NCBI GenBank assembly: GCA_964531785.1
Contig: CAZHFF010000001.1
Location: forward strand, 84,338-148,337
Source of the DNA: an uncultured Candidatus Saccharibacteria bacterium
Lineage (GTDB): Bacteria; Patescibacteriota; Minisyncoccia; Phycocordibacterales; UBA12088
Direction of reading: 5' to 3'
DNA length: 64,000 bases
Shown here: in pieces, positions 6,001 through 62,617 of the stretch
Position numbering within the stretch: the first letter of the stretch is position 1
Layout: every line of letters starts with the position of its first letter
Position numbers and translations under genes: made by a program
The notes under the pieces: generated by a model
What the model saw: the letters and a program-made list of their open reading frames with translations, nothing else
Told to the model about the DNA's origin: nothing
Databases searched by the model: none

Positions 6001-7299
6001 GGGTTGCCACAGGGCCGTGGCGGCGCCCCATGGCTTGCGGCACAGAACACATCGATAAGTCAGGAGCAGGAAGCCACGTTCCGTGTTCGTTTTGCGATCG
6101 AGAACTCAGGGCTCGAGATGACCGACCAGCAGATCCGGTTGCAGTATGCTGACAAGACCGGCTACGGTACCTGTAATGCGGTGCCATCGGTCGAGTATGA
6201 CGATGTACCGAACGCTGCGGGGTGCGGCGTCAATGCGATTTGCATGACGACCACGGCTCACTATAACGATGGTGACCCGACCGAACTATTGCTCAGCACT
6301 TCCGCGAACTACCGGGGTATTGCAGGAAAGCTCATTGAGAGCCCGAGCAATCAAACCACTGCGCTTACCATAGGTAATGAACGGGTCATTGAGGTCGAGT
6401 ATGCGATCGAGCTTACCCCGAACGCAACCTCCGACTCGTACTGTTTGCGCACGAGTGACGGCGGTGTGGAGTTCGACTCGTATCCGCAGATCGCCGAGGT
6501 GACCGCGAAGTACGGTCCACAGATCACGAACTGGCGGCTCAACTATGACGCCCCGATCGCGCTCGTCGAGGGGACGACGCGCGCGGTTGTGGCGACCGGC
6601 ACCGTGGCCGACCTCAACGGCTTTGAGGATCTCGTGTATGCGACGTCGACCATATACCGGAGCGGTGTAGGGAGCGATTGCGCTTCGGACCCGAACAACT
6701 GCTACCAGCTCACCTCGCTCCAGTGCCCGTTCGAGAACTGCTCCGGCACCACCTGCCAGGTCACCTGTACGGCCGATCTGCACTACTTCGCTGAGCCGAC
6801 CGACGATGGCAGCGCCTTCGAGGGAGAATCATGGCAGGCACGGCTCTTTATCCTTGACAGTACGGGCAATGAAGCAACCTCGACATCCGAAGGGGTCGAC
6901 CTCCTCACCCTGCGGGCGATGTCGGTCATCTCCGGTTCGATCAGCTATGGTACGCTCGGTCTTGCAGAGGATACCGGGAGCAGCAATGCGGTCGCGACGG
7001 TGCAGAATACCGGTAACGTTGGGATCGACCTGACCGTCGAAGGGACCGATATGACCGCGGGCTCGAGCGTGATCCCGGCAGGGAACCAGCTGTTCGCGAC
7101 CTCGACCTTCACGTATAGCTCGTGCGTGATCTGTTCCGCGCTCTCAGGTTCCCCGAGCCCCCTCGACCTCGACCTCGGCAAACCGACCTCGACCTCGAGT
7201 GCGGTAACGGACGACATCTACTGGGGTGTCTATATCCCGAGCGGTGTTGCGGGCACCGCGCACTACGGTGTGACCGAGTTCTATCCGATATCCACGTAA
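1..7299 (+). CDS. Giant secreted or surface protein, 5'-truncated at the window edge. Three ~800-aa tandem repeats (probable beta-helix/adhesin-like) followed by a unique C-terminal region with a DUF2341-like module.
   Basis: The frame is open from nt 1 with no upstream stop, and the listed 2401-aa ORF is at 94..7299. Three long internal repeats each end in a conserved F-A-T-S-S-G-x-S-G-[YF]-N-V-T-A-T-G ... Y-G-x-x-Y-D-N-D-P motif. Residues encoded at about nt 5090..5380 (DWDKRIRVNV...DLRFTD...TVWVKVP) resemble DUF2341. The protein is Thr/Ser/Gly-rich. Confidence 0.8.
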   Translation, partial: GTDPLGLALWGSTTVTTLSDGFFELAAEGGSMMTVSSTTIDHNPALQVFRLGFATSSGIVSGYNVTATGTPISYWWFRDHYGNYDGEAYDNDPVAEPGALRWDDSGFTIAISGNAYAGEGVGGAASSCGTHNVRLVVNGTTPYTAACDSGTGAFSFPAVSFAGDATFVAYLDTNGGARGAVVSRTPQSTIEDLAIYEHRVIVRHEYTEPLTLTQMAAYDSDQDSDIPYDAEVGALTVAPETGLFVWSDKTFAPGGNVTLASGGSGATYDGTLRLGTNAVFTSAGTETHTIGGSWVADTDATFTAASSSVVFTATTSGKTIAPSSPFYDVTFSGSGGWTIASSTVVTNALAVNAGSVVGTANVTVENGALSGNGSVALTGGTVTLYSGGMFGGSTAWSFNNLTLGNGGMGTTSKSGAGSVAIAGVLTVSANHVLEAGSVPWTLSGSGAPLVVSGSFSAQTSTTTWTGTAATAVPALSYHNLVFAPTSGSPTFTLAAGTLNAQSLTVGNGTNAVTVEANTNDPLINVSGTVRIRPSATYSAASANDLRIGGSYLNEGVFTHNGGGVVMQGSTSGLSVTPGNSPFRHLTFNNASGGWTISGNATTTGNFTLMAANSFTQANGTTLEVQGVFTNEVGGGVTEWTGSTLYLNSGTSYTMNSKTSGGDSYAALRLGASTHVRAWDSAAMTYTIPSSASFYSQDHANVPGELYIWGNYTRASGADHWSYATDFDGTDITSTPRQAKVFLADQATTTLSGGSLSIVGGAGATTTMQNQGSGTYGLVVSGGTFTAQYFRIRNIRSQGLTFSGAPTVTQLADGDLELSIQGGSTMTVAGSVITANPAKTWQGISFATSSGVSGFNVTATGSTGSSWRFTPTLGNLYGESYDNDPSPDPDGNPGYLVWEDSVQAINVSGRVYSDEGTTVSGVCNGSTPVVKLVAKSLAATTETTVPCAAGTGLYEVSSINFFGGGTVTVYLTGTAVPAAQVVHDTVSSLSDVDLYERRIMLRSVGPDAIRISDLAVHDSGEDPDVPFIAATGSPSSLTLPANTKLIVMQDSAFAPHGNITLQSGAGTAWDGTLELKQNATLVASTTQAHTYIVGGDWLAGSGSTFTAGLSTVTFTATTSGKTIEQRSSAFNTVIFNGTSGAWTFTGANATTTDDLIVTNGSVTVGTSTLAVGGSLVNDGTLVAASTTITLSSAAAETVKFGGASVGSLRFTGSGTFMMTDTNATSTGSVLISAGAVHLPSGTFAVAHGFEKTGGSFSHSGTLRLYGDLAGQTLRFGGSTLRNLTIAGTGSWTIADTAATSTGSVTIQSGGLTAPSANFGVGGSFVNSGTFNANGGHLYLFATSTGQTVAVGGGILSNVTFAGSGGGWTVSESATTTGALRLRQGTNFTMASSTVLEVQGVFENLIGGSATDWTDSRLYLNSGTSYTINTKAAGGDAYAFLTLGADTDVRMWNSSGATTTVHASSSLYSMNHGGSPGLLHVYGEYVRTSGADYWSHATDFDGVALGGGARPVSVRVASSSSITLTGGTLSIVGTASATTSIEVLGTGAYSWSIQNGTFEATYFSVRNLTAAGLILAGTTNVNSLSYGDMELSAEGGTLISVASSVIDQNPTKLMSGNRFATGTGATMGINVKRTGNTSNYWYFQGHYGGLSGEAYDDDGGDACGAIRWADSTCLEVSQSAYRFRADNGGGGAPDSEWFSTDWDKRIRVNVQNQNGQTITNGVVRVEVPLQDGMRSDFADLRFTDTSGTNLLSYVIESYTAATATVWVKVPSVAANSISPIYAYYDYYDVTVPNGQSATSTFLFLDTFESTNLASRYTGNTNYFAASASFARQGSYGLGAAVGYAEEETTGGMYGTSTSISRGSTLRWYQYVDTGASEASEPCTLFGVQGSGQNYAACLDQSPGRVVIARNVSSRDESGTILASSTASWMTGWYTVEVDWLSGGNMIHMTVHDVNGTLVASASASDGTYSSGTVGYSFWYQYGGWDFVSARPYAAIDLTGTVVGLPQGRGGAPWLAAQNTSISQEQEATFRVRFAIENSGLEMTDQQIRLQYADKTGYGTCNAVPSVEYDDVPNAAGCGVNAICMTTTAHYNDGDPTELLLSTSANYRGIAGKLIESPSNQTTALTIGNERVIEVEYAIELTPNATSDSYCLRTSDGGVEFDSYPQIAEVTAKYGPQITNWRLNYDAPIALVEGTTRAVVATGTVADLNGFEDLVYATSTIYRSGVGSDCASDPNNCYQLTSLQCPFENCSGTTCQVTCTADLHYFAEPTDDGSAFEGESWQARLFILDSTGNEATSTSEGVDLLTLRAMSVISGSISYGTLGLAEDTGSSNAVATVQNTGNVGIDLTVEGTDMTAGSSVIPAGNQLFATSTFTYSSCVICSALSGSPSPLDLDLGKPTSTSSAVTDDIYWGVYIPSGVAGTAHYGVTEFYPIST

Positions 7300-8145: not shown

Positions 8146-9633
8146 ATGGGAGGATACTTCGTGCGCACGGCTCTGGTGGCTGGTCTTACAGCATGGTTCG
8201 TGGTGATCGGCACCGTCCCGTCCGCTCACGTTGTGGACGAGCCGTTCGTAGGGTTCTCATTGCCGGTCGAGCAGAGCACACGTGCACCGTTTTCGCAGGG
8301 TGACGTGCGGCTTGCTGCCCGCGCACCGGCCCCTGCTCCCACGCTAGACACCCTGCTTGCCGCGGACGGTGTTTCTGAACTTGCCCCTCTGCCTGCGGCA
8401 GAAGCTCCGGCACGAGCTGCTTGGCTCGTACCGGACCGGGAACACACCCTCGGGTGTCCGTTCGTACCTGCGCCGGGACGTATCATCATAGACCTTACCG
8501 AAGGCAGTACGGCGCGGCTTGAGGACCGTCCGCTTGTTGCTCACAGGACCGCGTCGGAAGCACAGAGTTCGCAGGCTGTAACATTTGGACCAGGGCAGTA
8601 TGTGATCCGGGTCGCGACCTTAGATCACGATGACGGTGACCGCCGCATCGAGCTTGACGAGCGATGGTACGTGGCGTTCTTTGATCAAGCAGGGACCGAG
8701 ATCGTCCGGACCAAACCGACACGCGACCTGGAGCTCTCTGAGCGTGTCGTGCTCGAGCAGCTCGAACGATCGCTCACGATATCGAGACAAGTCAGCATGG
8801 TCCGTGTGGTGCATGACGCATTCCCCGGAAAGGAGCCGAACGCACTGCTTCCGCTCTGTGTTGCGCTAGATCAGGTACGTTCGCCGGTCCTTGCGCTGGC
8901 ATCCTCGCTCGTGCCGGCCCAAGAGCCATCGGTCACGTGTCCTATCCCGAAACGGGAGAACCGAACGATCGTCGATCTTACGAAAGGCGGGACCGTGCCG
9001 CTTGCCGAACTGTTTATCCGTTCCGATGGCGCCGAGCAAGATGCCATGCTGCCCGCGGCCCCGCTCTACCTGCAGCCAGGCAGCTACGAGGTGCGGTTCG
9101 CGGCACATGCGGCCGAGGGGGTTCGCACAGATGGTGAGCGTTGGCGTGCGGTGCTCTACGACCTGAGCGGTCAGCGGCAAGAGCTCGAAGTGACCCGAGA
9201 CATACCGGACTGGGAACAGACATTTGTCACGAAAGGATCGGACGAGGTCCTCATCGCACAGCCGATCGTACGATTCGCCCCGGTACACGCACGCTACCCG
9301 GACGCGGATGCGCATGCACTTGCGGTGCTCTGTGCGAGTTTTGATCGTCTGGGCATCGAAACGCGTCCCACAGTGGCAGCAGATGACGGGGCCATGAGCG
9401 CTGTGTTGCCCGAAACACACCAGGACGCTGATAGCACCGCTCTCGCGCAGACTGACGAGTCCTCGATGAACGGGACCGATTTGTCGACTTTGGAACCTGC
9501 GCAGGATGGAGACGAACAGCCTCAGGAAAGCGGCCCCCGGACACCGCTCGCGGTCGTTGCGATGACGTTCCTTGCACTGGTCATTCTTGGACTCCTGTGG
9601 CTCGGCGGCCTAGGCAGCCCAAGATCTACATGA
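8146..9633 (+). CDS. Hypothetical exported protein with an internally duplicated ~100-aa domain and a C-terminal TM anchor.
   Basis: N-terminal hydrophobic segment, two tandem related domains (LGCPFVPAPGRIIIDLTEGS... and VTCPIPKRENRTIVDLTKGG...), C-terminal TM PLAVVAMTFLALVILGLLWLGG. TGCATACT sits 7 nt before the ATG. Confidence 0.55.
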   Translation: MGGYFVRTALVAGLTAWFVVIGTVPSAHVVDEPFVGFSLPVEQSTRAPFSQGDVRLAARAPAPAPTLDTLLAADGVSELAPLPAAEAPARAAWLVPDREHTLGCPFVPAPGRIIIDLTEGSTARLEDRPLVAHRTASEAQSSQAVTFGPGQYVIRVATLDHDDGDRRIELDERWYVAFFDQAGTEIVRTKPTRDLELSERVVLEQLERSLTISRQVSMVRVVHDAFPGKEPNALLPLCVALDQVRSPVLALASSLVPAQEPSVTCPIPKRENRTIVDLTKGGTVPLAELFIRSDGAEQDAMLPAAPLYLQPGSYEVRFAAHAAEGVRTDGERWRAVLYDLSGQRQELEVTRDIPDWEQTFVTKGSDEVLIAQPIVRFAPVHARYPDADAHALAVLCASFDRLGIETRPTVAADDGAMSAVLPETHQDADSTALAQTDESSMNGTDLSTLEPAQDGDEQPQESGPRTPLAVVAMTFLALVILGLLWLGGLGSPRST

Positions 9634-9665
9634 ACCGGAAGCACGAGAAAGCGGAACCGATTCGC

Positions 9666-10313
9666 ATGTTCAGCAAGAAGTGCCGGGCACGGCTCTTGTT
9701 GTTCGGTGTTGCTGCAGCTGTGCTCACTTGTCTGTGCTGGCTTAGCTTCATGGACGCGGTAGGCAGGGTACAGGAGGAGCTTAACCGAGCACGCGTTCTC
9801 ACGATCATCGACAGTGCGGCGCTCTTCGTGCCAAGTCTCTTGGATGAACCCGATGTCCTGCGGGACGCGATGCGGTCGCTCGTTTTAGAGTACGCTGCAG
9901 TGCAGGCGGTGAGGATCGTAGCACCCCACGGGCCCGACTGGCGTGTCTACCTGACCGACACGGGCGATGGGGAAGGGGCGATCGAACGGGCCGTGCCAGA
10001 GCACTATGCTCGCGCATACGCTGACCCGTCCCGAACGTTCAGAGCAGGCGAGGGACAGAACTCCACATCGGTACGCGCACTCGCGAACGGGGGCTCGGTG
10101 CAGTCGCTCATCGTCGTTACCCATCGTCTGTCAGCGGCGGACCGTACGGCCGCGTATACGACGCTCACGTACCTTGGAGGGCTTGCGCTTCTGTTACTCG
10201 TGCTCGTTCTGGTCCTCGGGGGTTTGTTGCTCTGTGCTCGCGCCCTGGGTCACTCTGGTCTAAGGCAGTACGTACAGCAGCAAACAGGACCCGAGGCTGG
10301 TGTGCGTGCGTAG
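9666..10313 (+). CDS. Hypothetical two-TM protein with sensor-like topology.
   Basis: Start moved to the internal Met (MFSKKCRARLLLFGVAAAVLTCLCWL) to avoid overlapping the upstream gene. TM segments at both ends flank a soluble domain. Confidence 0.45.
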   Translation: MFSKKCRARLLLFGVAAAVLTCLCWLSFMDAVGRVQEELNRARVLTIIDSAALFVPSLLDEPDVLRDAMRSLVLEYAAVQAVRIVAPHGPDWRVYLTDTGDGEGAIERAVPEHYARAYADPSRTFRAGEGQNSTSVRALANGGSVQSLIVVTHRLSAADRTAAYTTLTYLGGLALLLLVLVLVLGGLLLCARALGHSGLRQYVQQQTGPEAGVRA

Positions 10314-14589: not shown

Positions 14590-14654
14590 TCGGTGCGCAG
14601 AAGGTAGAAAGGAGAATGAAAAGTGGCGACCAGGTATGGGGAACTACATAAGAG

Positions 14655-14812
14655 AAGATCAAAGGTCAAAAGGCAAAAATACAGTGCAAAGATAAAAAGT
14701 GAACGAGCACGTGTCACGAACATGCTCCCGGGAAAATGATCAGGCCGGGTGTACAGTGTAGTTGAATTTTGACCTGCACTTATGTATTTTGATCTTCGCC
14801 ATTTTGAATGGT
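14655..14812. repeat. AT-rich palindromic intergenic element (copy A) between convergent ATPase and trehalase genes.
   Basis: Left arm GATCAAAGGTCAAAAGGCAAAAATACAGTGCAAAGATAAAAAGTGAAC. Right arm is an inverted, related copy built of CAAAAG/TCAAAGG words. Sharp AT island in a GC-rich genome. Confidence 0.5.
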
Positions 14813-24834: not shown

Positions 24835-26031
24835 ATGTGGGGCCGCTTCTCTCTGTGTGCACGTGAGGTATGCCTCTTGGCGGTGGTGCTTGGCGCACTG
24901 CTCGTGTCCCTTGCGTCGGGTGTGCCGCGCGACGTAGGAGCACAGGTGTATGTTGCAACGACCACCGTGTCGCTCACCGTTTGCGGTGACGGTGTCGTGA
25001 GCGGTGCGGAGTTCTGTGACGACGGCACGAATACCGGGGCGTACGCTGGCTCTATTGCTGGACGGAACTGCGACCCGCTCTGCCGATCCTACGGCCCCTA
25101 TTGTGGTGACAGCATTATCCAGGTGTTCTATGGCGAGGAGTGTGATGATGGGAATAACAGCTCAGGAGATCTGTGCAACAATATTTGCCAGAACGAGACA
25201 CCGCCGGTCACCGTGGGTGGCGGTGGAGGCGGTACGACGGGTGGCGGTGGCGGAAAGAGCAGCGGTACCGGTCAGACGGGGATACCGGGCGCCTCGACGC
25301 AAGGTAACATCGATTTCGTCGGGGAAACGACCGTGCTGGTACGCGGTATGGCGTACCCCGGCGCCACGGTGAGCATTCTGCGTGACGGTGAGCTCGAGCG
25401 CGTCGTCGAGGCGGATTCGAGCGGCATGTTCAACTATGCGCTCAGTGGCCAGACCGCAGGCATCACGACGTTCGGTTTTTGGGCGCTCGATCGAGCGAAC
25501 CGGAGCTCGATCACCTACTCGGCAACGTTCCAGATCGTTGAGAACGCCGCTACCACGCTCTCAGGCATTCTCATACCGCCGACGATCGCGGCAGTACCTG
25601 AAAAGGTACCACCCGGCAGTTCCGTGCAGTTCGAAGGCACCGCGGCCGCGAACAGCTCGGTCCGTGTGTTCGTGGATGCGGCCGATACCCCCGAGGAGAC
25701 CAAGGCAGCTCAATCCGGTGCATATGTCCTTGCGTATGATACGAAAGACCTCGCGGCAGAGCAGTTCCATACGGTGAAAGCCCACTATGTTGACGCGTCG
25801 AACAGCGAGCTTAAGAGCGGTTTCAGTGCACTGCTCAACTTCTACGTGGGCACGCGTGACGTAGCGTCGACCGTGACCGCCGACCTCAATGGCGACCGTG
25901 CGGTGAACCTGACCGATTTCTCGATACTGCTCTTCAATTGGAACTCGAACAACCCGGTGGCTGATATCAACAAGGATGGGGTCGTGTCGCTGCCGGACTT
26001 TTCCATTCTCCTCTTCTACTGGACCGGCTAG
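24835..26031 (+). CDS. Secreted dockerin-containing protein with two Myxococcus-type cysteine-rich repeats and a Gly-rich linker.
   Basis: Two CGDG....E.CDDGN...C repeats. GGGGGGTTGGGGGKSSGTG linker. C-terminal dockerin type-I duplicated Ca-binding repeats DLNGDRAVNLTDFSILLFNW and DINKDGVVSLPDFSILLFYW. Confidence 0.6.
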   Translation: MWGRFSLCAREVCLLAVVLGALLVSLASGVPRDVGAQVYVATTTVSLTVCGDGVVSGAEFCDDGTNTGAYAGSIAGRNCDPLCRSYGPYCGDSIIQVFYGEECDDGNNSSGDLCNNICQNETPPVTVGGGGGGTTGGGGGKSSGTGQTGIPGASTQGNIDFVGETTVLVRGMAYPGATVSILRDGELERVVEADSSGMFNYALSGQTAGITTFGFWALDRANRSSITYSATFQIVENAATTLSGILIPPTIAAVPEKVPPGSSVQFEGTAAANSSVRVFVDAADTPEETKAAQSGAYVLAYDTKDLAAEQFHTVKAHYVDASNSELKSGFSALLNFYVGTRDVASTVTADLNGDRAVNLTDFSILLFNWNSNNPVADINKDGVVSLPDFSILLFYWTG

Positions 26032-26123
26032 CCGCTATGGTGAGGAAACACCCTTGCCCGAGTACCAGCGCTGTCCACCGCGCCAGTATCTTCTTGCTTG
26101 CTGGCTTGGGGTATACTGTATGC

Positions 26124-27170
26124 ATGCGTGCGCTCAGAGCACCTCTGTTTCTGCTACTTGCCGTGTATATGCTGCCGTTTCCGGTACAAGCGGCGCGGGT
26201 GTACCTTGACCCTGGTGCGACCGAACAAGGCAGGCTCGATACGTGGTACCTTCCGGTACGGATCGACACCGAAGGAGCCTGTATCAATGCGGTCACGGTG
26301 AAGGTGAACTATGACCCTGCGCTCGTGAGCGTGATCGATACCTCGCGTGGCAACTCGATCATACCGCTCTGGGTAGATCACCCGAGCGTCGCCCGTGAAG
26401 AAGCGGACCAAGAGGTCGGCGTCGTTTCTTTCACCGGGGGTATTCCTGGCGGCTATTGTGGCCGTGTCCTCGGTGATCCGGGCCAGACCAATACGCTTCT
26501 CACGCTTGTGGTGACAGGCGCGTCGGGCGGGCGGCCGCTCGAAGTCCCGGTCAAGACGCTCTTTACGCTCGATCCGACCACGACCGCATACCTGCACGAT
26601 GGGACCGGCATGGCAGCTGCCATGACGCTCCTCGGGACCGAGGTCACGCTCTATGAGGGCACCAGCACTCCGGCGAACGTCTGGCTCGATGAGGTGCGGA
26701 GCGATACGATCGCGCCTGAGCTGTTCGACATCACCCTCGTACGCGGTCCTTCTGAGGGAAATGTTCGCCACTACATCGTCTTCTCGACGACCGATAAGCA
26801 GAGCGGGATCGATCACTATGAGGTCCGTGAGACCGATCCGCTGCGTTTTGGCTTCCTGACGCTCTTTCCGGACAAGAGCAGCTATTGGATCGAGGCATCA
26901 AGCCCCTACATTCTGCGCGACCAGACACTGCGATCGAAGATCCTGGTCAAAGCCGTCGACAAGAACGGCAATGAGCGGATCGTGACGCTCATGCCAGAAC
27001 TCGATCCACTGGAGCGCGTGCTCCACCCGACCATACTCGCCCTCCTTGCGGTGATCATCGGAGTCCTGGCGTTGATCATCGTCCTGTATACGCGAAGGCG
27101 ACGCACGACGAAACGTCCCGAAACCTTAGGCGGCGAACCCCATGACCATGAAACACAAGATCGTCCTTAG
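26124..27170 (+). CDS. Cohesin-like domain surface protein with C-terminal TM anchor.
   Basis: Start at MRALRAPLFLLLAVYMLPFPVQAA, a signal peptide, with GGGGTATACT 6 nt upstream. Cohesin-like pattern VYLDPGATEQGRLDTWYLPVRIDTEGACINAVTVKVNYDPALVSVIDTSRG. C-terminal TM ILALLAVIIGVLALIIVLY followed by RRRR. Confidence 0.6.
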   Translation: MRALRAPLFLLLAVYMLPFPVQAARVYLDPGATEQGRLDTWYLPVRIDTEGACINAVTVKVNYDPALVSVIDTSRGNSIIPLWVDHPSVAREEADQEVGVVSFTGGIPGGYCGRVLGDPGQTNTLLTLVVTGASGGRPLEVPVKTLFTLDPTTTAYLHDGTGMAAAMTLLGTEVTLYEGTSTPANVWLDEVRSDTIAPELFDITLVRGPSEGNVRHYIVFSTTDKQSGIDHYEVRETDPLRFGFLTLFPDKSSYWIEASSPYILRDQTLRSKILVKAVDKNGNERIVTLMPELDPLERVLHPTILALLAVIIGVLALIIVLYTRRRRTTKRPETLGGEPHDHETQDRP

Positions 27171-28980
27171 TTTCTTGTTCGCGCTTGGTGCGGTCGCGAA
27201 TGCGCCTCATGCAGCGCAGGCAGCGCAGGACGCGGGGCTCTACCTCACGCCGGCGACCGCCGTATTCCCGGTGGGCGAGCCTTTTACGGTCGAGGTTCGT
27301 ATCAGGAATACCGGTGGATCGATAGGTACGGCGGACGCTACGGTGGGATATGAGCCGTCGGATCTCGAGTTCGTTTCGTTCTCGTCGGACGGCTCGATCT
27401 TTGCGTCTATCATCGTCCCCGAAACGAACGAACGAGGTCGGGTCAAGGTCCAGGGCGTGGTCTCGCACGGGAGGTCTTGGAGCGGAGAAGACGGCCTGTT
27501 CGCGACCTTGACGTTCCGTCCGCTGCGGAGCACAGCGACCGAGCTGCGTTTTATGCAGGGTGCCGCGACACCGCTCATGGCGGCGGTCGGCGCATCGAAT
27601 GTCCTGTCACGGCTGGGAGCTGCGACCTACACGCTCGTGCCGAAGGAGATGGTACCTGCGCCAGCTGCGGTCATTGCGGCAACACCTGCTCAGGAGGGTT
27701 CGATCGAGATCACGCCACTTCCTTTGCCGGACGATGGCTGGTTCGGAACAACGTCCGTAAAACTCGCATGGTCCTTGCCTCAGTCGGTCACTGAGATGCG
27801 CACGATCCTCTCCGACAAGCCAGTCGACACGCCTTCAAAGCTGTACCCGGTCCCGGTCTCGTCGGTACTACTCGACGGTCTCGCTGAGGGGACCAACTAC
27901 TTCCATATGCAATGGAAACAGGAGGGGGTCTGGGGGCCCGTTACCCGCTATCCGATCAAGGTCGACCTGACGCCACCTGAACATGTGATCGTGACCGAAG
28001 CCGATCGAACCGACCCGACCGACCCGCGCGCAGCGTTCGTGATCGACAGTGCGGACCTGCTCTCTGGCATCAGTAGCTATTTGATCTCGATCGACAACGA
28101 TGAGCCCGAGGTCTGGGAAAAGAGCAAGGACGAGCTCTATCGTCCGCAGGGTCTTACACCGGGGAGTCACTTGATCACGGTCACTGCACGCGATCGCGCA
28201 GGGAACACGAAGACCGCAGAGCTCGAGTTCCTCGTGCGGTCGCTCGACCCACCTACCATGACCCGCTCTCCTGACCACGTCCTTGCCGGCAACCAGATCA
28301 CCATCGAGGGAACGACCTACCCGAACGCTGAGGTCACGACGTACATCAGTTTCAAGGATGGGGAAGCGACCGAAAAGAAGGTGCGGAGCGATGCGTCGGG
28401 CGCGTTCATCGTCACACTGACCGAGGAGGCACGTCCGGGCAAGTATACCATCTGGTTCTCCGTTGCTGATGAGCGCGGCGCGGTGAGCCCGCCCTCGATC
28501 AAACGGTCGGTCACGGTGACGCAGCCGTATATCATGCTGTTCGGGTCGACCGCGGTCACGTACATGTCGGTGATCGTGCCGCTCGTCGGCCTCATCCTGC
28601 TCCTTGGTTTGATCCTTTGGCTGCTCTACACCTATGTGCGCGGCTACCGAGCCCGCGTTCGGCGTGAGACCGACCAAGCGTACCGTGCGGTCCAAGACGA
28701 GTTCAGCAACCTCGAACAGGACATGGTCAAGCAGATCGGCGTGCTCGAGCAGGCGAACCATGCACGTAAGCTGACCCGCGAAGAGCTCCGCATCCTGACC
28801 GAGCTACGCGAGAAGCTGAACAAGATACAGGAGCACATCTCATCAGAGATCGATGATATCGAGCCGGTCGCACACGAACTCCGGGTACCACCAAAGCGAC
28901 AACGTGAAGAAAGCGCTCTCGCTCGAGTGCGCGAAACGCAGCCGTCGAAACGGACGATAACGATCGAACGAGTGAGGTAA
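27142..28980 (+). CDS. Cohesin-like domain surface protein with Ig-like domains, a TM anchor and a cytoplasmic coiled-coil tail.
   Basis: Signal peptide. LYLTPATAVFPVGEPFTVEVRIRNTGGSIGTADATVGYEPSDLEFVSF resembles a cohesin. TM VIVPLVGLILLLGLILWLLY, then a charged helical tail. Confidence 0.6.
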   Translation: MTMKHKIVLSFLFALGAVANAPHAAQAAQDAGLYLTPATAVFPVGEPFTVEVRIRNTGGSIGTADATVGYEPSDLEFVSFSSDGSIFASIIVPETNERGRVKVQGVVSHGRSWSGEDGLFATLTFRPLRSTATELRFMQGAATPLMAAVGASNVLSRLGAATYTLVPKEMVPAPAAVIAATPAQEGSIEITPLPLPDDGWFGTTSVKLAWSLPQSVTEMRTILSDKPVDTPSKLYPVPVSSVLLDGLAEGTNYFHMQWKQEGVWGPVTRYPIKVDLTPPEHVIVTEADRTDPTDPRAAFVIDSADLLSGISSYLISIDNDEPEVWEKSKDELYRPQGLTPGSHLITVTARDRAGNTKTAELEFLVRSLDPPTMTRSPDHVLAGNQITIEGTTYPNAEVTTYISFKDGEATEKKVRSDASGAFIVTLTEEARPGKYTIWFSVADERGAVSPPSIKRSVTVTQPYIMLFGSTAVTYMSVIVPLVGLILLLGLILWLLYTYVRGYRARVRRETDQAYRAVQDEFSNLEQDMVKQIGVLEQANHARKLTREELRILTELREKLNKIQEHISSEIDDIEPVAHELRVPPKRQREESALARVRETQPSKRTITIERVR

Positions 28981-29025
28981 ACGGTAGACCCGGCGCCCTA
29001 TTGTGTTGCTTGCGTCAATCGGGCC

Positions 29026-29754
29026 CTAGGACCAAAAGAGTACGAGGCCGCCGAGCCGGGTTGAGTCAGCCATGTTCGAGATGATGATCGCAAGGTCGGC
29101 GAGCGTTATCTTGCCGTCCTGATCAAGGTCGTACTGCGCCTCGTAGGCGAGGAACAGCCTTGACGAAACGATGCCAAAGTCGATCAGGTTGACCTGCGCA
29201 TCACCGTTTATATCGGGTGAGGGTGCCGACGCTTCCCGTACCGAGAGGATGATCGGACTTTTTTTGCTGGTGAGCTCTGTGCCCTGTCCGTCGTGGGCGA
29301 GTACGTGCGCCTCCCCCCAGAGCACGCTCGCCTTACCCTGTTCGAGCGGACGGAGCGTGAGCGTGAAGAGCGTCCCGGACCCGGTAAAACCGGTCGGAGA
29401 GACGACGCCGCCTGCAAATCGTAGCTCGCCGTCCTTCAGCACCGGTTCCTCTGCCCAGAGGTCAATGATCGAGCCGTCGTAGGCGATCCGCTCGACCACG
29501 AACTTGTCCATAGGCACAGCGATCGTGCCGCTCACCACGTTGATCGGCTGCTTGCTCGCTAGGTTGACCTGGAGCGTAACCTGCTCACCGACCGCAACGA
29601 AGCGCCCATCTTCGGGTACCAGGTACACGTCATACGGGCTTCGTATGAAGGAGAGCGATGTTGCCAATAGAACGATGACCGGCAGGCCTACTGCCAGGGT
29701 GTACCTATGGCGCAACAGCTGGTGTGTTACCATCCGGAACATCAGTACCTCCAT
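29026..29754 (-). CDS. Signal-anchored protein carrying both a cohesin-like domain and a C-terminal dockerin; possible adaptor.
   Basis: Start moved to MEVLMFRMVTHQLL...LAVGLPVIVLLATSL, a TM segment. Cohesin-like YLVPEDGRFVAVGEQVTLQVNLASKQPINVVSGTIAVPMDKFVVERIAYDGS. Dockerin repeats DINGDAQVNLIDFGIV and DLDQDGKITLADLAIIISNM. Confidence 0.55.
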   Translation of the reverse strand: MEVLMFRMVTHQLLRHRYTLAVGLPVIVLLATSLSFIRSPYDVYLVPEDGRFVAVGEQVTLQVNLASKQPINVVSGTIAVPMDKFVVERIAYDGSIIDLWAEEPVLKDGELRFAGGVVSPTGFTGSGTLFTLTLRPLEQGKASVLWGEAHVLAHDGQGTELTSKKSPIILSVREASAPSPDINGDAQVNLIDFGIVSSRLFLAYEAQYDLDQDGKITLADLAIIISNMADSTRLGGLVLFWS

Positions 29755-29835
29755 AGTACCAGGAACAGGATCCCTGTGGAGCCTGTGCTGGTGATAACTC
29801 GGTCCGCATGCTCGCGACGCGCGTATACTGGAGGT

Positions 29836-30351
29836 ATGAAGAGCGTCCTGGTGGTCGGTCTGTTCTGCTTGGTGTGCCTGCTCGGTTTTGGTATCTGGTA
29901 CTACAGCGACCCGAGTCCGGAACCAGCAAGCGACGAGTCCAGTGTTCCTCCCGATGGGATCCCGGTGCCGATCTACTTTTACCAGCAAGCGACCGATGTC
30001 GATCAGAACGGTAACCTGCTGTGCTCCCGCAAGGGTGTCGTGTCCGTGCGACGCTACCTGCCACCGAGCCACACCTTGGCTGATCGTATCGAGCTCGTGC
30101 TTGGCGGCAAGCTTACGGCGAACGAGCGCGCGCAGGGCATCGCGACCGAGTATCCGCTCGCCGGCGTGCGGCTCGTGAGTGCGGTCATTGAGAACCGTAA
30201 GGCGATACTCACGTTCGAGGATGTGCTCGGCAAGACGAGAGGTGGAGCGTGTCGTTCGGCCATCCTTTGGTACCAGCTCGAGCAGACCGCGCTCTCGTTC
30301 GGAGAGGTGCGCGATGTCGAGTTCCGGCCTTCCAGTCTGTTCCAGCCCTAA
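29836..30351 (+). CDS. GerMN domain protein, signal-anchored.
   Basis: Start at MKSVLVVGLFCLVCLLGFGIWYY. CGTATACT then GGAGGT precede the ATG. GerMN-like pattern (IPVPIYFY...LVLGG.LTANERAQGIATEYP...ILTFEDV...VEFRP). Confidence 0.55.
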   Translation: MKSVLVVGLFCLVCLLGFGIWYYSDPSPEPASDESSVPPDGIPVPIYFYQQATDVDQNGNLLCSRKGVVSVRRYLPPSHTLADRIELVLGGKLTANERAQGIATEYPLAGVRLVSAVIENRKAILTFEDVLGKTRGGACRSAILWYQLEQTALSFGEVRDVEFRPSSLFQP

Positions 30352-44252: not shown

Positions 44253-44367
44253 CAGCTCGTCCAGAATTGGCGGATACCATTGTCGCCTGCGTTGTCGACC
44301 CCTTCACCGTATGCGTGTACGGCTGAGGGGTACGACTTCCTGGGCTTCTCGATCTTCATCCAATTCT
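44253..44367 (+). other. Large hairpin immediately 3' of nrdJ: 18-bp perfect stem around a structured ~79-nt loop. Possible terminator or small structured RNA.
   Basis: CAGCTCGTCCAGAATTGG at 44253..44270 pairs with CCAATTCTGGACGAGCTG at 44350..44367. The loop contains further GC-rich stems. Confidence 0.4.
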
Positions 44368-44426
44368 GGACGAGCTGGTCGCTTCTGTAATTGCACGTCG
44401 GTGCAGGTGACCTTGTCGGCGTGACT

Positions 44427-44712
44427 AAGTTCAAAGGTCAAAACCAACGGCAATAGTACAGGTCAAAATGTAAAAGTGATCACGCAATAGGGCGATGTCT
44501 ACCCCACACCTTCCGGCAAGTAAGGATGGTCGTCGTAACGATAGGGGAAAAAGTAAGTTCAATTTAGACGACACCAGGAGAGCTGTGACAAAAATACGCT
44601 CTATGGTTATGCAGCTGTGCATAATGCAAAGAACCGCGGCCAACTTTTTGAGCTTCGATCAGGCCCTTTGATTTTGGCTCGCACTTTTGTCTTTTGACCT
44701 TTGAATTCAGTT
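44427..44712. repeat. AT-rich element pair (copy F) with ~190-bp spacing, in the nrdJ-smc intergenic region.
   Basis: Left arm AAGTTCAAAGGTCAAAACCAACGGCAATAGTACAGGTCAAAATGTAAAAGTGATCAC. Right arm CACTTTTGTCTTTTGACCTTTGAATTCAG. Confidence 0.5.
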
Positions 44713-58644: not shown

Positions 58645-58972
58645 TGCGTCCTCCCGCGCGACTCAACTGTTCACCATAAAACCATCTACCAACTTCACTG
58701 TCAATAGTAGGCACAGAACATGCCTTCGCGTTTCGATACCCGCACGCGAGCAAAGAAGTTTGCTCGCTCCTCTTCACCTCAACGAAAAACGGCACGCTGA
58801 TCGCGTGCACGTTTTCGTAATCGGTGGAGATTGCTGAAGGAAGTTAGAGCCTGTTTGATTGAATGCAGGGTTACACATTTCCTACGTCTGGTGGATGAAT
58901 GGGTACCCCCAATACCGTTTTAAACTATGAAAAGGGAATGGGGATAGCTGGCGATTAGAACCTTGGCATGCA

Positions 58973-60277
58973 TTATTTCTTCCGATATACAATCGCAGAT
59001 GGTACACGCCTGCCGTTTGATGGTGACCATAGGAAAGGATGCTCCTCTTTCTTTGGCCAACGTACGTAGTGTTGATTGCCAAATGTTTTGACTTTGCCAT
59101 TTAGCTCTTTAACAGCAAGTCGTGAAGATTGGCCTGGATCAAGATGATATGCCCATTGCACGGCTTCTTTTGGAAGCAACAATGCGGTCTCTTGCGGCGT
59201 AATACCTTGAAAATGTTCTGTCTGGGGTGCGCCATCAAATACTCGCGTATGAATGTTTCCGTCAGTATCCTTATAAATTACCGATCGTGCCATCCTACGT
59301 TCTCCAAATGGCGGATGTTCACCAAGAGAAAGATCATGATTGATCTCGTGATCTTTCTTATCTATAAAATGATGTACATTTGGACCGATACTGACTGCAG
59401 ATTCAATGTCTGTAAGACTCAGTGTGTCGAGGGTAAGGGGTTGTACTGGATCCCCAACTTTGAAATGACTAGCATCAACACCTTTCAACTGGAAAATAAA
59501 ATTTCCCGCAAAGAGATTGGTATGACCCCCCGCGATAACTTGTTTGATACGCAATACGCCATCATTATCTGCCAGTACAACTACATCAAACGAGTCGTTG
59601 TCTTGTGGTGTAAAATTTACTGCCTCATCCAGAACCCGTTTTGTGCCAGTGTTTTGAGCTTGTACATGCCGCACCACACAGCACGCGGAATTATACAAAA
59701 CCATATGGTTTTCATTCGTTTCATTGCGATGTTGAGACCGTGCGCCTACCCACTCGTATTCATCTGAACCAAAGCCGATGGTTCCTTTCGCTCGTACTTC
59801 TTTTACATCAAACCCACTCTCTGTTGAGAACACTGCCGGGCGATCCGCTGCTGGCAATCCCACAACATAACGTCCCCGTATGCAAAGATTGTACGTCGGG
59901 TCAGTAGGCACATATGCACCCTCGTCAACGAGATGGAAAAATCCGGCGTTCATGGCACCGATTGCATGTTCGTCGTTTATGAGCAATCGTTTGAGCGAGA
60001 CAGCATGGCTTGCAGTAAATACCTCCGGTGTTGTGGAAGGATTTTCATCCGGTAATGACAAATCGTAAATGTTTGTGAACGCCTGGTCGCCTAACTCAAC
60101 CGTATTCTGCGAAAATACAGCACCTCCCATAGCCTCTCTCGTTTCTGCGTTTGCCCGCACTTCAAAAGGGGACTGGTCGGTACGCAGCGATTCAACACTA
60201 GGAATTTCAAGTCCAGTTTCTTCCCCATATGTCTCTATCTGTTTCTGGTTAAATGATTCAAAAAATTGCTTCGCCAT
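58973..60277 (-). CDS. Phosphodiester glycosidase family (NAGPA/DUF2233-like) protein, no signal peptide. Islet cargo.
   Basis: AIGAMNAGFFHL and C-terminal SVIYKDTDGNIHTRVFDG....AYHLDPGQSSRLAV match the NAGPA-domain pattern (aiNGGFF ... vvvDGR ... NLDGGGS). Low-GC codon usage. Confidence 0.45.
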   Translation of the reverse strand: MAKQFFESFNQKQIETYGEETGLEIPSVESLRTDQSPFEVRANAETREAMGGAVFSQNTVELGDQAFTNIYDLSLPDENPSTTPEVFTASHAVSLKRLLINDEHAIGAMNAGFFHLVDEGAYVPTDPTYNLCIRGRYVVGLPAADRPAVFSTESGFDVKEVRAKGTIGFGSDEYEWVGARSQHRNETNENHMVLYNSACCVVRHVQAQNTGTKRVLDEAVNFTPQDNDSFDVVVLADNDGVLRIKQVIAGGHTNLFAGNFIFQLKGVDASHFKVGDPVQPLTLDTLSLTDIESAVSIGPNVHHFIDKKDHEINHDLSLGEHPPFGERRMARSVIYKDTDGNIHTRVFDGAPQTEHFQGITPQETALLLPKEAVQWAYHLDPGQSSRLAVKELNGKVKTFGNQHYVRWPKKEEHPFLWSPSNGRRVPSAIVYRKK

Positions 60278-60286
60278 GATTTTGTA

Positions 60287-60922
60287 CTACGTAAGTCGCT
60301 TGCGAATATCTTCTCGCTGTAAGAAAAATTGTACAGGATAAGTTATTTCTTTGGGGATGTGGTCAACTGTAAACCAATCATATCTTGCTCCTTCCTCATC
60401 AAGCTTTACATCTTTTATGGTTGTGTGTGCAAGATACAAATACCAGTAATGAATGTCAGCTCCGCCGACGCATTCGTCTCCGGCAATCTCGCTTTCAAAT
60501 ACGAGTTCAGCATCAGGCACAATGATACCTACTTCTTCTTCGGTCTCGCGCAGAGCAGCTACCTTCGGATCTTCGCCGTTTGAAATATGTCCCGCGGGAA
60601 TGGTGTAGAGAAATGGATACTTCGTACGCAAAAAAAGCAGGAGTTCCTTTTTTTCATTTACCAGCAAAGTCCCTGCGCTGTAGTGTACCAATTCGTTCGC
60701 TTTGTTGAATGTCTGCATCATGCCTGGATCGTAGATTAACACCCGCGCATTGAGCTTTCCGCATACGCGACAGTGATACATGTTTCGCCCACTTTCTTTT
60801 GCTTTTTCCACATCAGTTGAACCACATACAAAACAATACTGTGTTTTTTGAGCAGGAAGTATTGGAGGAAATTGTGAGCGGTGAGTCATATGCTCACTAT
60901 ACAGCGTCTTAAACAATATCAT
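60287..60922 (-). CDS. NUDIX hydrolase with an N-terminal CxxC...CxxC zinc ribbon. Islet cargo.
   Basis: Nudix box GHISNGEDPKVAALRETEEEVGI. N-terminal CFVCGS...CRVCGK. Low-GC. Confidence 0.8.
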   Translation of the reverse strand: MILFKTLYSEHMTHRSQFPPILPAQKTQYCFVCGSTDVEKAKESGRNMYHCRVCGKLNARVLIYDPGMMQTFNKANELVHYSAGTLLVNEKKELLLFLRTKYPFLYTIPAGHISNGEDPKVAALRETEEEVGIIVPDAELVFESEIAGDECVGGADIHYWYLYLAHTTIKDVKLDEEGARYDWFTVDHIPKEITYPVQFFLQREDIRKRLT

Positions 60923-60958
60923 AGGGGTTCCAATTTCCTCACATCTCTCCCAAAATAC

Positions 60959-60988
60959 GCAAAAACGAGCCTTATGAAAAAAGGCTCG
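60959..60988 (-). terminator. Rho-independent terminator on the minus strand between the TIR element and the NUDIX gene.
   Basis: Stem CGAGCCTT/AAGGCTCG with a 7-nt loop, followed on the minus strand by UUUUUG. Confidence 0.55.
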
Positions 60989-60993
60989 TACAT

Positions 60994-61357
60994 GTGGACT
61001 TTTAGTAGCCTTTGCCCGAACCTATTTCGAGTCAAAGACCGACTAGAATCGCGCTTGCCCGTCCGTAGCCTTGGCGAAGGCGGGCGCCTCCACGGCTCCG
61101 CTGCGCTCCGCCGTCCCGCAAAACGTCCCCGTCCTTCTCCACTACGACGTAAACGACGGCGACGGGTGGGGCAGCAAAAACGAGCGAAGAACGGGGACGT
61201 TTCGCGAAAGAGCGGAGGACGAACGGAGGCGGTGCCAAGTGTGCCCGTAGGGCGCACTTGGCAACGGCGGAGTGAGGACGGAGCGACGGAGGCTCGAGAT
61301 CATGCGGCGGTCTTTGACCCGAAGTAGGTTCGGGCAAAGGCTGCTAAAAGTCCACCG
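60994..61357. repeat. MITE-like element of about 364 bp with ~48-bp imperfect terminal inverted repeats and a GC-rich, highly self-complementary interior.
   Basis: Left TIR GTGGACTTTTAGTAGCCTTTGCCCGAACCTATTTCGAGTCAAAGACCG at 60994..61041. Its reverse complement, with 3 mismatches, is at 61308..61357. The only interior ORF is an Arg-rich low-complexity frame. Confidence 0.5.
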
Positions 61358-61402
61358 ATTACGAAAACGTGCACGCGATCAGCGTGCACGTTTTCGTAAT
61401 CG
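61354..61402 (-). terminator. Perfect 24-bp inverted repeat that includes the tmRNA 3' terminus; hairpin, terminator or att core.
   Basis: CCACCGATTACGAAAACGTGCACG-cgatcag-CGTGCACGTTTTCGTAATCGGTGG. The right arm overlaps the 29-bp direct repeat. Confidence 0.5.
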
Positions 61403-61811
61403 GTGGAGATGGCGGGTATCGAACCCGCGTCCAACGAGAATTCTGAGAAATGCTCTACAGGTTTAGACTGTTTTTTCCGCGCAAGGCGGATCCAAGAAGG
61501 GTAGGGCGAAACAGACAAAATCTACCCGTCCGGCCATGCTTGGTCTCGATGTCTGTGGTGATGGTAACCGGTCGACGTCAGAGCCGAATGGTATTACACC
61601 GAGTTCCGCGTATCGGCGTCAAACGGAACCGATGGCAAGGCGTAACTGTTTAGGTTAGGCCATTGCGAAGCCAAGGTCTTTCATCTGGAAAGGTGAAAGG
61701 ATGGCCCGTGCGGTTTTTTCTGCACGTATCTTTTTCCAGAGTTTTACGACTTCCTGGAGGTCGACCTGCACATTTCAAAGAACGATCCCGCTGTCTAAGC
61801 CGGTCATCCCC
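61403..61811 (-). ncRNA. ssrA: tmRNA (ssrA).
   Basis: 5' GGGGAUGACCGGCUUAGACAGCGGG. The 3' end is ...GACGCGGGUUCGAUACCCGCCAUCUCCACC. The GGGGAUG/CAUCUCC acceptor stem has a G3:U70 pair. T-loop UUCGAUA. The resume codon GCA is at nt 89, and the candidate tag AEKTARAILSPFQMKDLGFAMA ends at a UAA. The terminal A of CCA is not encoded. Confidence 0.85.
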
Positions 61812-62073: not shown

Positions 62074-62520
62074 TTAGCCTTCTTCCTCCTCATCTTCATC
62101 GCATGTACACGGCAGCACGTGTTTGCCGCAGAGGCATGCGAACCAGGCCTCCGCCGGTTCGATGACGCCGCGGAGCATAGCGTACTCATCATCGTCAAGG
62201 ATCCGCGGTTCCTCGGCATCATAGCGGTCATCCGCGAATACTGCTCGCAGGAGCTGGTCCTGCACAACGTCGGGGTCCTCTGCAGAACCACGCGGTGGTC
62301 GGAGGAGCCCCTTGAGTTTCCTCGTGGCGTTCTTGACCTTTTTTAAGCGGGTCAAGCTGATGCCGACCTCGGCACCGCACGCGTGCGCGTACGCGACCGG
62401 ACGCTCTGCTGTGCCTTCAAAAACAGCAGTCGCAAGATACTGAAGCGCACGCTCGCGCGCTTCACCGTGCAGGGCGAGTTCGTCCACAGCACGGTCGCAA
62501 TTGGTGACGCAACAGTCCAT
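62074..62520 (-). CDS. Hypothetical Cys-rich acidic protein encoded between smpB and ssrA.
   Basis: AAGGAGG sits 8 nt before the ATG of MDCCVTNCDRAVDEL. Cys clusters CCVTNC and CLCGKHVLPCTC. Acidic C-terminus DEDEEEEG. The tool's longer ORF begins at a GTG. Confidence 0.45.
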   Translation of the reverse strand: MDCCVTNCDRAVDELALHGEARERALQYLATAVFEGTAERPVAYAHACGAEVGISLTRLKKVKNATRKLKGLLRPPRGSAEDPDVVQDQLLRAVFADDRYDAEEPRILDDDEYAMLRGVIEPAEAWFACLCGKHVLPCTCDEDEEEEG

Positions 62521-62617
62521 AGAGACATTCCTCCTTTCTGGTACGGCCATTCCGTACCCTCTCACAAGATCGAATATGTAGCTGTAAAGGTTCAGTTCAA
62601 GTTCCCTCCGTACCTAC

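Follow-up and report, generated by a model that had tools for sequence, protein, structure and literature searches.

The 64 000-nt stretch of DNA analysed here (hereafter, the window; positions 84 338–148 337 of contig CAZHFF010000001.1, assembly GCA_964531785.1) belongs to an uncultured Candidatus Saccharibacteria bacterium and contains the gene for the tmRNA, ssrA, with smpB upstream of it. Going by the names given to relatives of its SmpB, the organism falls in the Paceibacteria/Parcubacteria group of the candidate phyla radiation (CPR). Beyond the 3′ end of ssrA lies a small integrated islet that encodes only a NUDIX hydrolase and a NAGPA-like protein. The subject of this report is a 364-bp foldback element that forms the ssrA-proximal end of this islet: on one side it adjoins the palindromic terminator of ssrA, and on the other an intrinsic terminator separates it from the promoter of the NUDIX gene. 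The coordinates of these and the other features discussed below are collected in Table 1.

The element is delimited by two long terminal inverted repeats (TIRs). An inverted-repeat search of the window paired them at 45 of 48 positions (94%) across an intervening 266 nt, and each of the three mismatches is a transition. They form the longest inverted repeat in the window; indeed, the top three inverted repeats all map to the element locus, and the best found elsewhere extends over 33 nt at 73%. A 17-mer taken from the TIR occurs in the two arms and nowhere else in the window. When the whole element is folded as RNA, energies of −226 kcal/mol (z = −16.2) and −216.5 kcal/mol (z = −14.5) are obtained for the plus and minus strands, respectively, with the 364 nt collapsing on either strand into a single branched rod or hairpin. 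The minimum-free-energy folds contain 10 G·U pairs on the plus strand and 10 on the minus strand, and therefore neither strand is singled out as the transcribed one.

The 266-nt interior is still structured when folded by itself, having z-scores against shuffled sequences of −5.3 and −3.9 with DNA parameters. It is built around an inner long stem, whose arms enclose the apical region, together with side hairpins that differ between the two halves of the element. Whereas the match between the arms is 94% over the outer 48 bp, the two sides of the interior align poorly, in patches and with indels, and short motifs of the CTCCG/CGGAG type are reiterated throughout. The interior also stands apart in composition: its GC content is 66%, compared with 48–54% for the TIRs, 44.5% for the gene-bearing part of the islet (58832–60993) and 58.7% for the window outside the islet. 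Three open reading frames (ORFs) run across the element (148, 112 and 101 aa), but none has a Pfam match, and searches of two very large protein collections returned their own translation and a single low-complexity match. Comparison of the element with the rest of the window revealed no similarity, which rules out an origin from local sequence. A preliminary description of this DNA had reported near-perfect arms of ~48 bp, a GC-rich interior full of nested inverted repeats, the lack of a credible ORF and a location inside the islet, with the palindrome of the tmRNA terminator on one side and a minus-strand intrinsic terminator on the other; all of this is borne out. Its right-hand boundary alone needs correction, as the CG dinucleotide at 61356–61357 lies outside the repeat.

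Table 1. Features of the ssrA locus in the window and, in the last row, of the corresponding loci in relatives
Feature	Position	Strand	Details
Foldback element	60994–61357 as first reported; repeat proper ends at 61355	none	364 bp; GC 62.4%
Left terminal inverted repeat	60994–61041		48 nt; outer tip GTGGAC; pairs with 61308–61355 at 45/48
Right terminal inverted repeat	61308–61355		48 nt; tip GTCCAC; outer TCCAC at 61351–61355
Inner long stem	61106–61137 and 61186–61217		arms of 32 nt each, 81% complementary; encloses the apical region (61106–61217)
Side hairpin	61233–61263	minus (as written)	14 bp; TGCCAAGTGCGCCC-TAC-GGGCACACTTGGCA; contains AAGTGCGCCCT at 61249–61259
Left-half side hairpin	61057–61085		small, GC-rich
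Hairpin oligonucleotide with MOBQ-like core			TGCCAAGTGCGCCCTACGGGCACACTTGGCA
tmRNA gene (ssrA)	61402–61811	minus	ARAGORN; Rfam RF00023, 129 bits
Perfect palindrome	61351–61407		26-nt arms and 5-nt spacer; present ssrA terminator
29-nt exact direct repeat, ssrA-proximal copy (attL-like)	61382–61410		GCGTGCACGTTTTCGTAATCGGTGGAGAT
29-nt direct repeat, distal copy (attR-like)	58803–58831		
Displaced native terminator half	58782–58802		left of the distal 29-nt copy
Integrated islet	58832–61381		2.55 kb; 47% GC overall; element, terminator, NUDIX gene and NAGPA-like gene
Intrinsic terminator	60965–60989	minus	9-bp stem and T run; just past the element, separates it from the NUDIX promoter
NUDIX hydrolase gene	60287–60922	minus	N-terminal zinc ribbon; likely start ATG at 60889
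NAGPA-like (phosphodiester glycosidase-like) gene	58973–60277	minus	434 aa
Native inverted copy of the ssrA 3′ end (~28 nt, degenerate)	58727–58778	plus	CGCGTTTCGATACCCGC...CTCTTCACC, split by a 25-nt hairpin
Hairpin units in relatives	L053:4746–5033 (to 5049 in wider span); L024:3506–3699; L025:3506–3699		

The islet is framed by two direct copies of a 29-nt sequence, GCGTGCACGTTTTCGTAATCGGTGGAGAT, which, read as its reverse complement, consists of the final 9 nt of the tmRNA followed by 20 nt of trailer. This exact repeat, which includes ATCTCCACC, is the core of a 53-nt direct repeat of 83% identity (within 58782–58834 and 61351–61413). There is no recombinase or integrase gene in the islet, nor was any transposase, integrase, recombinase, relaxase or reverse transcriptase found among the ~40 ORFs of the window that were scanned; the only viral relatives of the islet genes amount to a generic NUDIX box. 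These features are the signature of an island that has integrated at the ssrA 3′ end, here without a recombinase. Genomic islands at the 3′ ends of ssrA and tRNA genes, and derivatives of these that lack a recombinase (cis-mobilisable elements, CIMEs), are well known, and the islet resembles them in having a direct repeat of the gene's 3′ end, in restoring the gene end and supplying a terminator, in displacing the native flank and in its deviant GC content. In contrast to typical examples, it measures only 2.55 kb and has no integrase, its attachment (att) site is a long perfect palindrome, and the arm next to that site is occupied by the 364-bp foldback rather than by an integrase gene or arm-type sites.

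The palindrome itself is a composite. Its right arm consists of the 3′ end of the tmRNA (TCCACC) and 20 nt of trailer, and its left arm is an inverted copy of the same sequence borne by the island; as a result, the terminator of ssrA is now a perfect 26+5+26 palindrome, and the islet is consequently flanked by an inverted as well as by a direct repeat. This inverted repeat is 47 nt long, matches at 94% (58782–58828 and 61351–61397) and encloses 2522 nt; between its copies the 5-nt loop is flipped (TGATC versus GATCA). Given these 47-nt repeats, the islet could invert, or could have been assembled in either orientation.

The element begins directly after the island-borne arm of the palindrome, with which its right tip has 5 nt (TCCAC) in common. 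Outside the left tip, TCGTA-CAT-GTGGAC mirrors the TCGTA-ATCG-GTGGAC found outside the right tip, and the left flank is the terminator hairpin, which starts with ACGA and ends with TCGT. No target-site duplication (TSD) is present at any register, the flanking sequences being ...GGCTCGTACAT/ on the left (...GTACAT/) and /CGATTACGAA on the right (/CGATTA), where the slash marks the boundary; instead, the outermost bases of the flanks form an inverted, not a direct, repeat.

The ssrA loci of relatives, which we obtained via their SmpB homologues, contain nothing that resembles the element, but their own 3′ flanks are eventful. In L022, a gene for a 478-aa large serine recombinase (8841–10277, minus strand; Resolvase, Recombinase and Zn_ribbon_recom domains) abuts the tmRNA 3′ end at ...CTCCAC/, the gene call overlapping that end; the tmRNA-derived sequence stops at a junction at 8959 (...CATCTCCAC/AAAAAG). 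Two other contigs, L018 (end 11076) and L051 (end 9276), stop exactly at the tmRNA 3′ end. In L053, the ssrA terminator is followed by a 32-nt inverted copy (94%) of the tmRNA 3′ end (4726–4757), then by two tandem GC-rich hairpin units of ~147 nt, separated by three copies of a 19-nt repeat (GGGGGTATCGAAGGCCGGA), and then by a second terminator. A single unit homologous to these is present in each of L024 and L025, giving a family of ~147–190 nt. When its three sequences are compared, compensatory changes are seen at 11 of the 36 predicted pairs; the family has no match in Rfam. L024 likewise carries an inverted copy of the tmRNA end (3111–3165), weaker than that in L053. Inverted and partly degenerate tmRNA 3′ ends thus lie beyond the ssrA terminator in the native flank of the window, in L053 and in L024, and it is by virtue of these copies that the 3′ flank of ssrA is dyad-symmetric in all three. 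Such a flank could act as a site of recombination, or its role could be a different one. From sequence comparison, the ssrA flank is a putative recombination hot-spot that gathers small structured insertions.

On the other side of ssrA, the interval between it and smpB holds a 163-aa ORF without a Pfam match in the window (62074–62565, minus strand), a 62-aa ORF in L018, and ORFs of 99 and 244 aa together with a gene of the 23S_rRNA_IVP family in L024; this slot, too, appears to be variable.

The closest relatives of the pair formed by the NUDIX gene and the 434-aa gene (L043–45; 73% identity) have only ~70 nt upstream of the terminator before the contigs begin, in the place where the window carries the 364-bp element. 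As the gene pair is found elsewhere without the element, the latter is not part of the gene cassette, and its interpretation as a conserved piece of that cassette can be dismissed. L043, L044 and L045, which are independent assemblies from three samples, begin at the very same base, 154 nt upstream of NUDIX. Together with those of L018 and L051, these contig ends suggest that repeats or palindromes are present there too. A −10-like TATAGT, located between the intrinsic terminator and the ATG of the NUDIX gene, is conserved in L043–45; this motif and the terminator, both lying between the element and the gene, rule out a riboswitch or leader of NUDIX.

Several other classes of folded site were considered. 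With its 364 bp, the element is far outside the 57–141-bp range of integron attC sites, and GCCCGAAC and GTTCGGG misfit the R″/R′ boxes (RYYYAAC...GTTRRRY); more generally, by inspection, none of the attC, dif, CRESS/geminivirus nonanucleotide and ssoA CS-6 motifs fits. A retron msr-msd would require a reverse transcriptase, and the islet and the window have none among the ~40 ORFs. As to an inverton, inverted repeats are present, no invertase is encoded in the window, the interior is quasi-palindromic and a terminator intervenes between the element and the genes. The sequence CACTACGAC is located at the apex of the element (61141–61150, plus strand); it bears a possible resemblance, a weak 8-mer match, to the nick sequence of the pMV158 family of Rep proteins, TACTACGAC, and we do not read it as a nick site. 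A tRNA- or tmRNA-like fold is equally unconvincing, with nothing returned by ARAGORN and only a weak match to tmRNA_permuted (16 bits, E = 0.8).

The structure is real, non-random and an orphan. The explanation that we prefer, as a tentative possibility, is that it is a non-coding, non-autonomous, DNA-level foldback (quasi-palindromic) mini-element that reached the palindromic ssrA site by site-specific recombination. The 3′ end of the tmRNA (…TCCACC) and the adjoining terminator would constitute a dyad-symmetric site used by the site-specific recombinases of this lineage, a perfected palindromic copy of which would have been brought in by the islet. With the crossover core (GTGGAC…GTCCAC) at either end, the element would have been placed or last rearranged by a recombinase acting in trans, and not by a transposase; site-specific recombination would also explain the absent TSD and the single copy. 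The 48-bp arms may represent two inverted recombinase-binding or arm-type regions, with the GC-rich interior as a passenger structure. Movement by a site-specific recombinase, a role of the arms as protein-binding sites and non-autonomy are what we infer. Today, the element is probably inert, save for the large hairpin that it adds between ssrA and the islet genes. We are led to this explanation by the att-proximal position of the element, the coincidence of its tips with the ssrA core, the mirrored flanks, the lack of a TSD, the single copy, the direct repeats and palindromic site of the islet and the analogous events at the same nucleotide in relatives, and also by the strong match of the outer 48 bp around a poorly matched interior, which is unlike the outcome of a single neutral inverted duplication. 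Furthermore, the equal numbers of G·U pairs and the absence of an Rfam match point to symmetry at the DNA level.

Several observations count against this explanation. The overlap with the core amounts to 5 nt and the mirrored flank contributes 5 more; beyond these, the arms are unlike the 3′ end of the tmRNA. None of the ~40 window ORFs encodes a recombinase, transposase, relaxase or reverse transcriptase. The search for copies covered the 64-kb window of the source genome and public collections, and no second example was found. The analogy with the units of the relatives is positional and is not one of homology: a nucleotide profile of the unit family (nhmmer) has no match to the element at E ≤ 10, and the covariance model (cmsearch), run over 4.5 kb, matches only its inner hairpin, and weakly (7.9 bits, E ~0.06). 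The likeness lies in a location downstream of both the ssrA terminator and an inverted ssrA end, in their GC-rich, structured nature, in boundaries that resemble the ssrA 3′ end and in the second terminator; unlike the element, the units are shorter and tandem, and have 19-nt direct repeats in place of 48-nt inverted repeats. Finally, an independently structured interior of 66% GC is not explained by a pure att-arm model, and hints at selection on a folded nucleic acid.

Other explanations have to be weighed against this one, beginning with whether the structure is an artefact of assembly or amplification, namely a fold-back chimera. Short-read assemblies do break at palindromes: three Logan contigs of the locus end precisely at repeated 31-mers, and both available assemblies derive from one run. 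Nevertheless, Logan contig L016, an independent assembly of that run, contains the element at 100% identity, and it is not, therefore, an assembler-specific artefact. Moreover, all junction k-mers are found in contigs, and the three transitions between the arms and the asymmetric halves, with their differing side hairpins, are unlike chimeric fold-backs; given the imperfect arms, the unlike hairpins and the second assembly, an artefact is very improbable indeed. A genuine structure may still be function-less, having arisen by inverted duplication or intrastrand template switching beside the perfect ssrA palindrome, and recurrent conversion through template switches would then have kept its outer arms alike. 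Template switching is known to act on perfect palindromes, and here two large palindromes adjoin with 5 nt in common, both strands fold equally well with no strand bias, and the interior is made of reiterated motifs. Such a by-product is, however, rather unlikely in view of the uneven identity between the outer arms and the interior with its indels, the unlike side hairpins of the two halves, the lack of any local template resembling the interior, and an interior GC content above that of both host and islet. The preliminary description had proposed two functional identities, a non-autonomous transposable element or a structured non-coding RNA (ncRNA). The latter would be a minus-strand transcript, made by ssrA read-through or from an unrecognized promoter and ending at the intrinsic terminator; its terminal stem might be cut by RNase III or RNase P-type enzymes, and its role might perhaps lie in tmRNA maturation or in the islet. 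This proposal gains from the two minus-strand terminators that bracket the element, the first of which has a short, weak U tract (CUUUUAG), and from the extreme fold, the high GC content of the interior within an AT-richer islet, as is the case for structured RNAs in AT-richer DNA, and the minus-strand 3′ end, in which …GUCCAC-A, 4 nt and a terminator parallel the …CUCCAC-C, 5 nt and terminator of ssrA. The structured, covarying units that occupy the same position in L053 and L024 also speak for it, particularly as they precede a second terminator and conserve their G·U pairs on the ssrA strand. It loses from the Rfam scan that had been suggested as a check, which found the tmRNA alone at the gathering score and nothing meaningful in the element at E ≤ 10 (best match at most 16 bits, E at least 0.8). 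Likewise, no homologue, and hence no covariation, was found for the element, which falls outside the unit family; the G·U pairs are evenly divided, with the plus strand folding slightly better; and a near-perfect 48-bp duplex is unusual in a functional bacterial RNA. A promoter scan of 60990–61360 located no sigma-70-like −35/−10 pair, TTGACT and TTGACC being accompanied, by eye, by poor −10 candidates at 22–23 nt. On balance, we consider an ncRNA unlikely.

The other identity put forward was that of a miniature inverted-repeat transposable element (MITE), that is, a deletion derivative of an insertion sequence (IS) that was moved by a transposase recognising the 48-bp TIRs and is present as a single, possibly hitch-hiking, copy. 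Many bacterial MITEs form long hairpins, including the Correia (CREE), ERIC and RUP elements, and the likeness to these holds as far as the TIRs, the size of a few hundred bp, the lack of ORFs, the hairpin on both strands, the intergenic location beside terminators and ends that are better conserved than the interior. It fails in that there is no TSD, no parent IS and no transposase in the window, the 48-bp TIRs are unusually long, and the tips coincide with a site-specific recombination core, an overlap that points to site-specific, not random, insertion. There is, moreover, only one copy in the 64 kb. At k = 31, contig L016 continues without a branch out of the palindrome, along the whole element, over the islet-side boundary and on into the NUDIX gene, which implies that the sample has no near-identical second copy. 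An 18-nt core that is exact in both arms has 14 matches among GTDB species genomes, one in IMG/VR and 12 in JGI metagenomes, but these involve a single arm and do not extend beyond 18–25 nt, and their numbers are, by our own estimate, about those expected by chance for collections of such size. Searches of plasmid and phage collections with blastn gave only matches with E ≥ 0.4 and no IS with the element's ends. Within the window and the collections searched, the outcome is thus a lone copy with neither a TSD nor TIRs conserved elsewhere, the combination that the preliminary description had named as making a mobile MITE unlikely. The remainder of the source genome and the islet's donor lie outside the scope of these searches, which leaves some room for a MITE, but overall we find it improbable. 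As a further alternative, the islet may be a decayed integrative mobilisable one, and the element its origin of transfer (oriT)-like, or single-strand-active, site. A MOBQ-type relaxase or HUH enzyme acting in trans would then nick AAGTGCGCC/CT atop the 14-bp minus-strand hairpin, and the extensive hairpin would be active when single-stranded. The motif AAGTGCGCCCT, of which the window contains a single exact occurrence, forms the 11-nt core of the MOBQ oriT consensus in the literature, NWACCNNTAAGTGCGCCCTYNN (PMC3832669, PMC10333310, PMC10378824), as known from RSF1010/R1162 and pSK41/pC221. With respect to the nick-region core, TAAGTGCGCCCT, the element matches 11 of 12 consensus positions, with an exact 11-mer, a score reached by 0.19% of shuffled sequences. 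The hairpin core also aligns at 16 of 17 positions with the nick region of pSK41, AAGTGCGCCCTTACGGG, which is located 79 bp upstream of a MobA/MobL relaxase gene (0.2–0.3% of shuffles reach this), and the element is at the edge of an integrated islet. The motif was, however, chosen post hoc among ~6–10 motifs, giving a corrected p of ~0.02–0.03, and the flanking consensus (ACC..T, Y) is unmatched: upstream, CTCACTCCGCCGTTGCC has no local hairpin and misfits NWACCNN (WACC..). An inverted repeat would be expected to end ~8 nt 5′ of nic, but none is present, and the core is instead buried in the stem of a hairpin, on its 5′ arm. Neither the islet nor the ~40 ORFs of the window include a relaxase, MOBQ relaxases being in any case very rare in Patescibacteria (2 of 109; PMC12102498), and none of the plasmid oriT sequences showed extended similarity. 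Querying with the inner hairpin gave a single match, in Rhizobium, inside a 159-aa ORF of an unannotated stretch; as no annotated relaxase adjoins it, we rejected it as evidence for an oriT. In addition, a nick in the minus strand would make the sense strand of the islet genes the transferred one. Like the Frpo/ssi single-strand promoters of plasmid leading regions (PMC11541004), the element is noncoding, measures a few hundred nt, folds into a long imperfect hairpin and precedes a set of co-oriented genes on mobile DNA, but it has no −35/−10 elements in its stem, it is separated by a terminator from genes that have their own promoter, and there is no conjugative context. All told, an oriT-like function seems quite improbable.

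A broader proposal builds on the preferred placement by site-specific recombination: the element and the tandem units of the relatives might together belong to a class, so far undescribed, of miniature hairpin elements that lack a recombinase and home to the ssrA dyad site. Each member would bear the crossover core at its two inverted tips and would move in trans, perhaps in the form of a folded single strand; the MOBQ-like nick core would then find an explanation as well. We offer this as a speculation to which we attach little weight.

Elsewhere in the window, a ~510-nt intergenic region between the genes for ribonucleotide reductase and SMC contains an 18-nt perfect inverted repeat (44253–44270 and 44360–44377) and a 20-nt inverted repeat of 90% (44424–44443 and 44692–44711), the two together spanning 44253–44711. 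A motif from this region, TCAAAGGTCAAAA, recurs at 14654–14672, and the region has no Rfam match at the gathering score. A giant ORF of 2401 aa (94–7299, plus strand), for which DUF2341 is the sole Pfam match, is followed by several ORFs without a family and then by proteins with cohesin/dockerin and Ig domains (24835–30072).

Mobile elements are believed to be scarce in the small genomes of the candidate phyla radiation (Patescibacteria). Should the element be no more than an orphan relic, it is ordinary, being one more insertion scar at a tmRNA gene. The dyad-symmetric ssrA flanks that gather hairpin units in Paceibacteria are a more promising lead than the element itself. Palindromes at this site explain why assemblies break at the tmRNA gene in such organisms. 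Moreover, if the ssrA flank is indeed a dyad-symmetric hot-spot in Paceibacteria, at which hairpin elements without a recombinase and small cargo islets accumulate, it would represent a route of gene gain in reduced genomes, with a concrete site (…TCCAC/) and, in the large serine recombinase of L022, a candidate enzyme.

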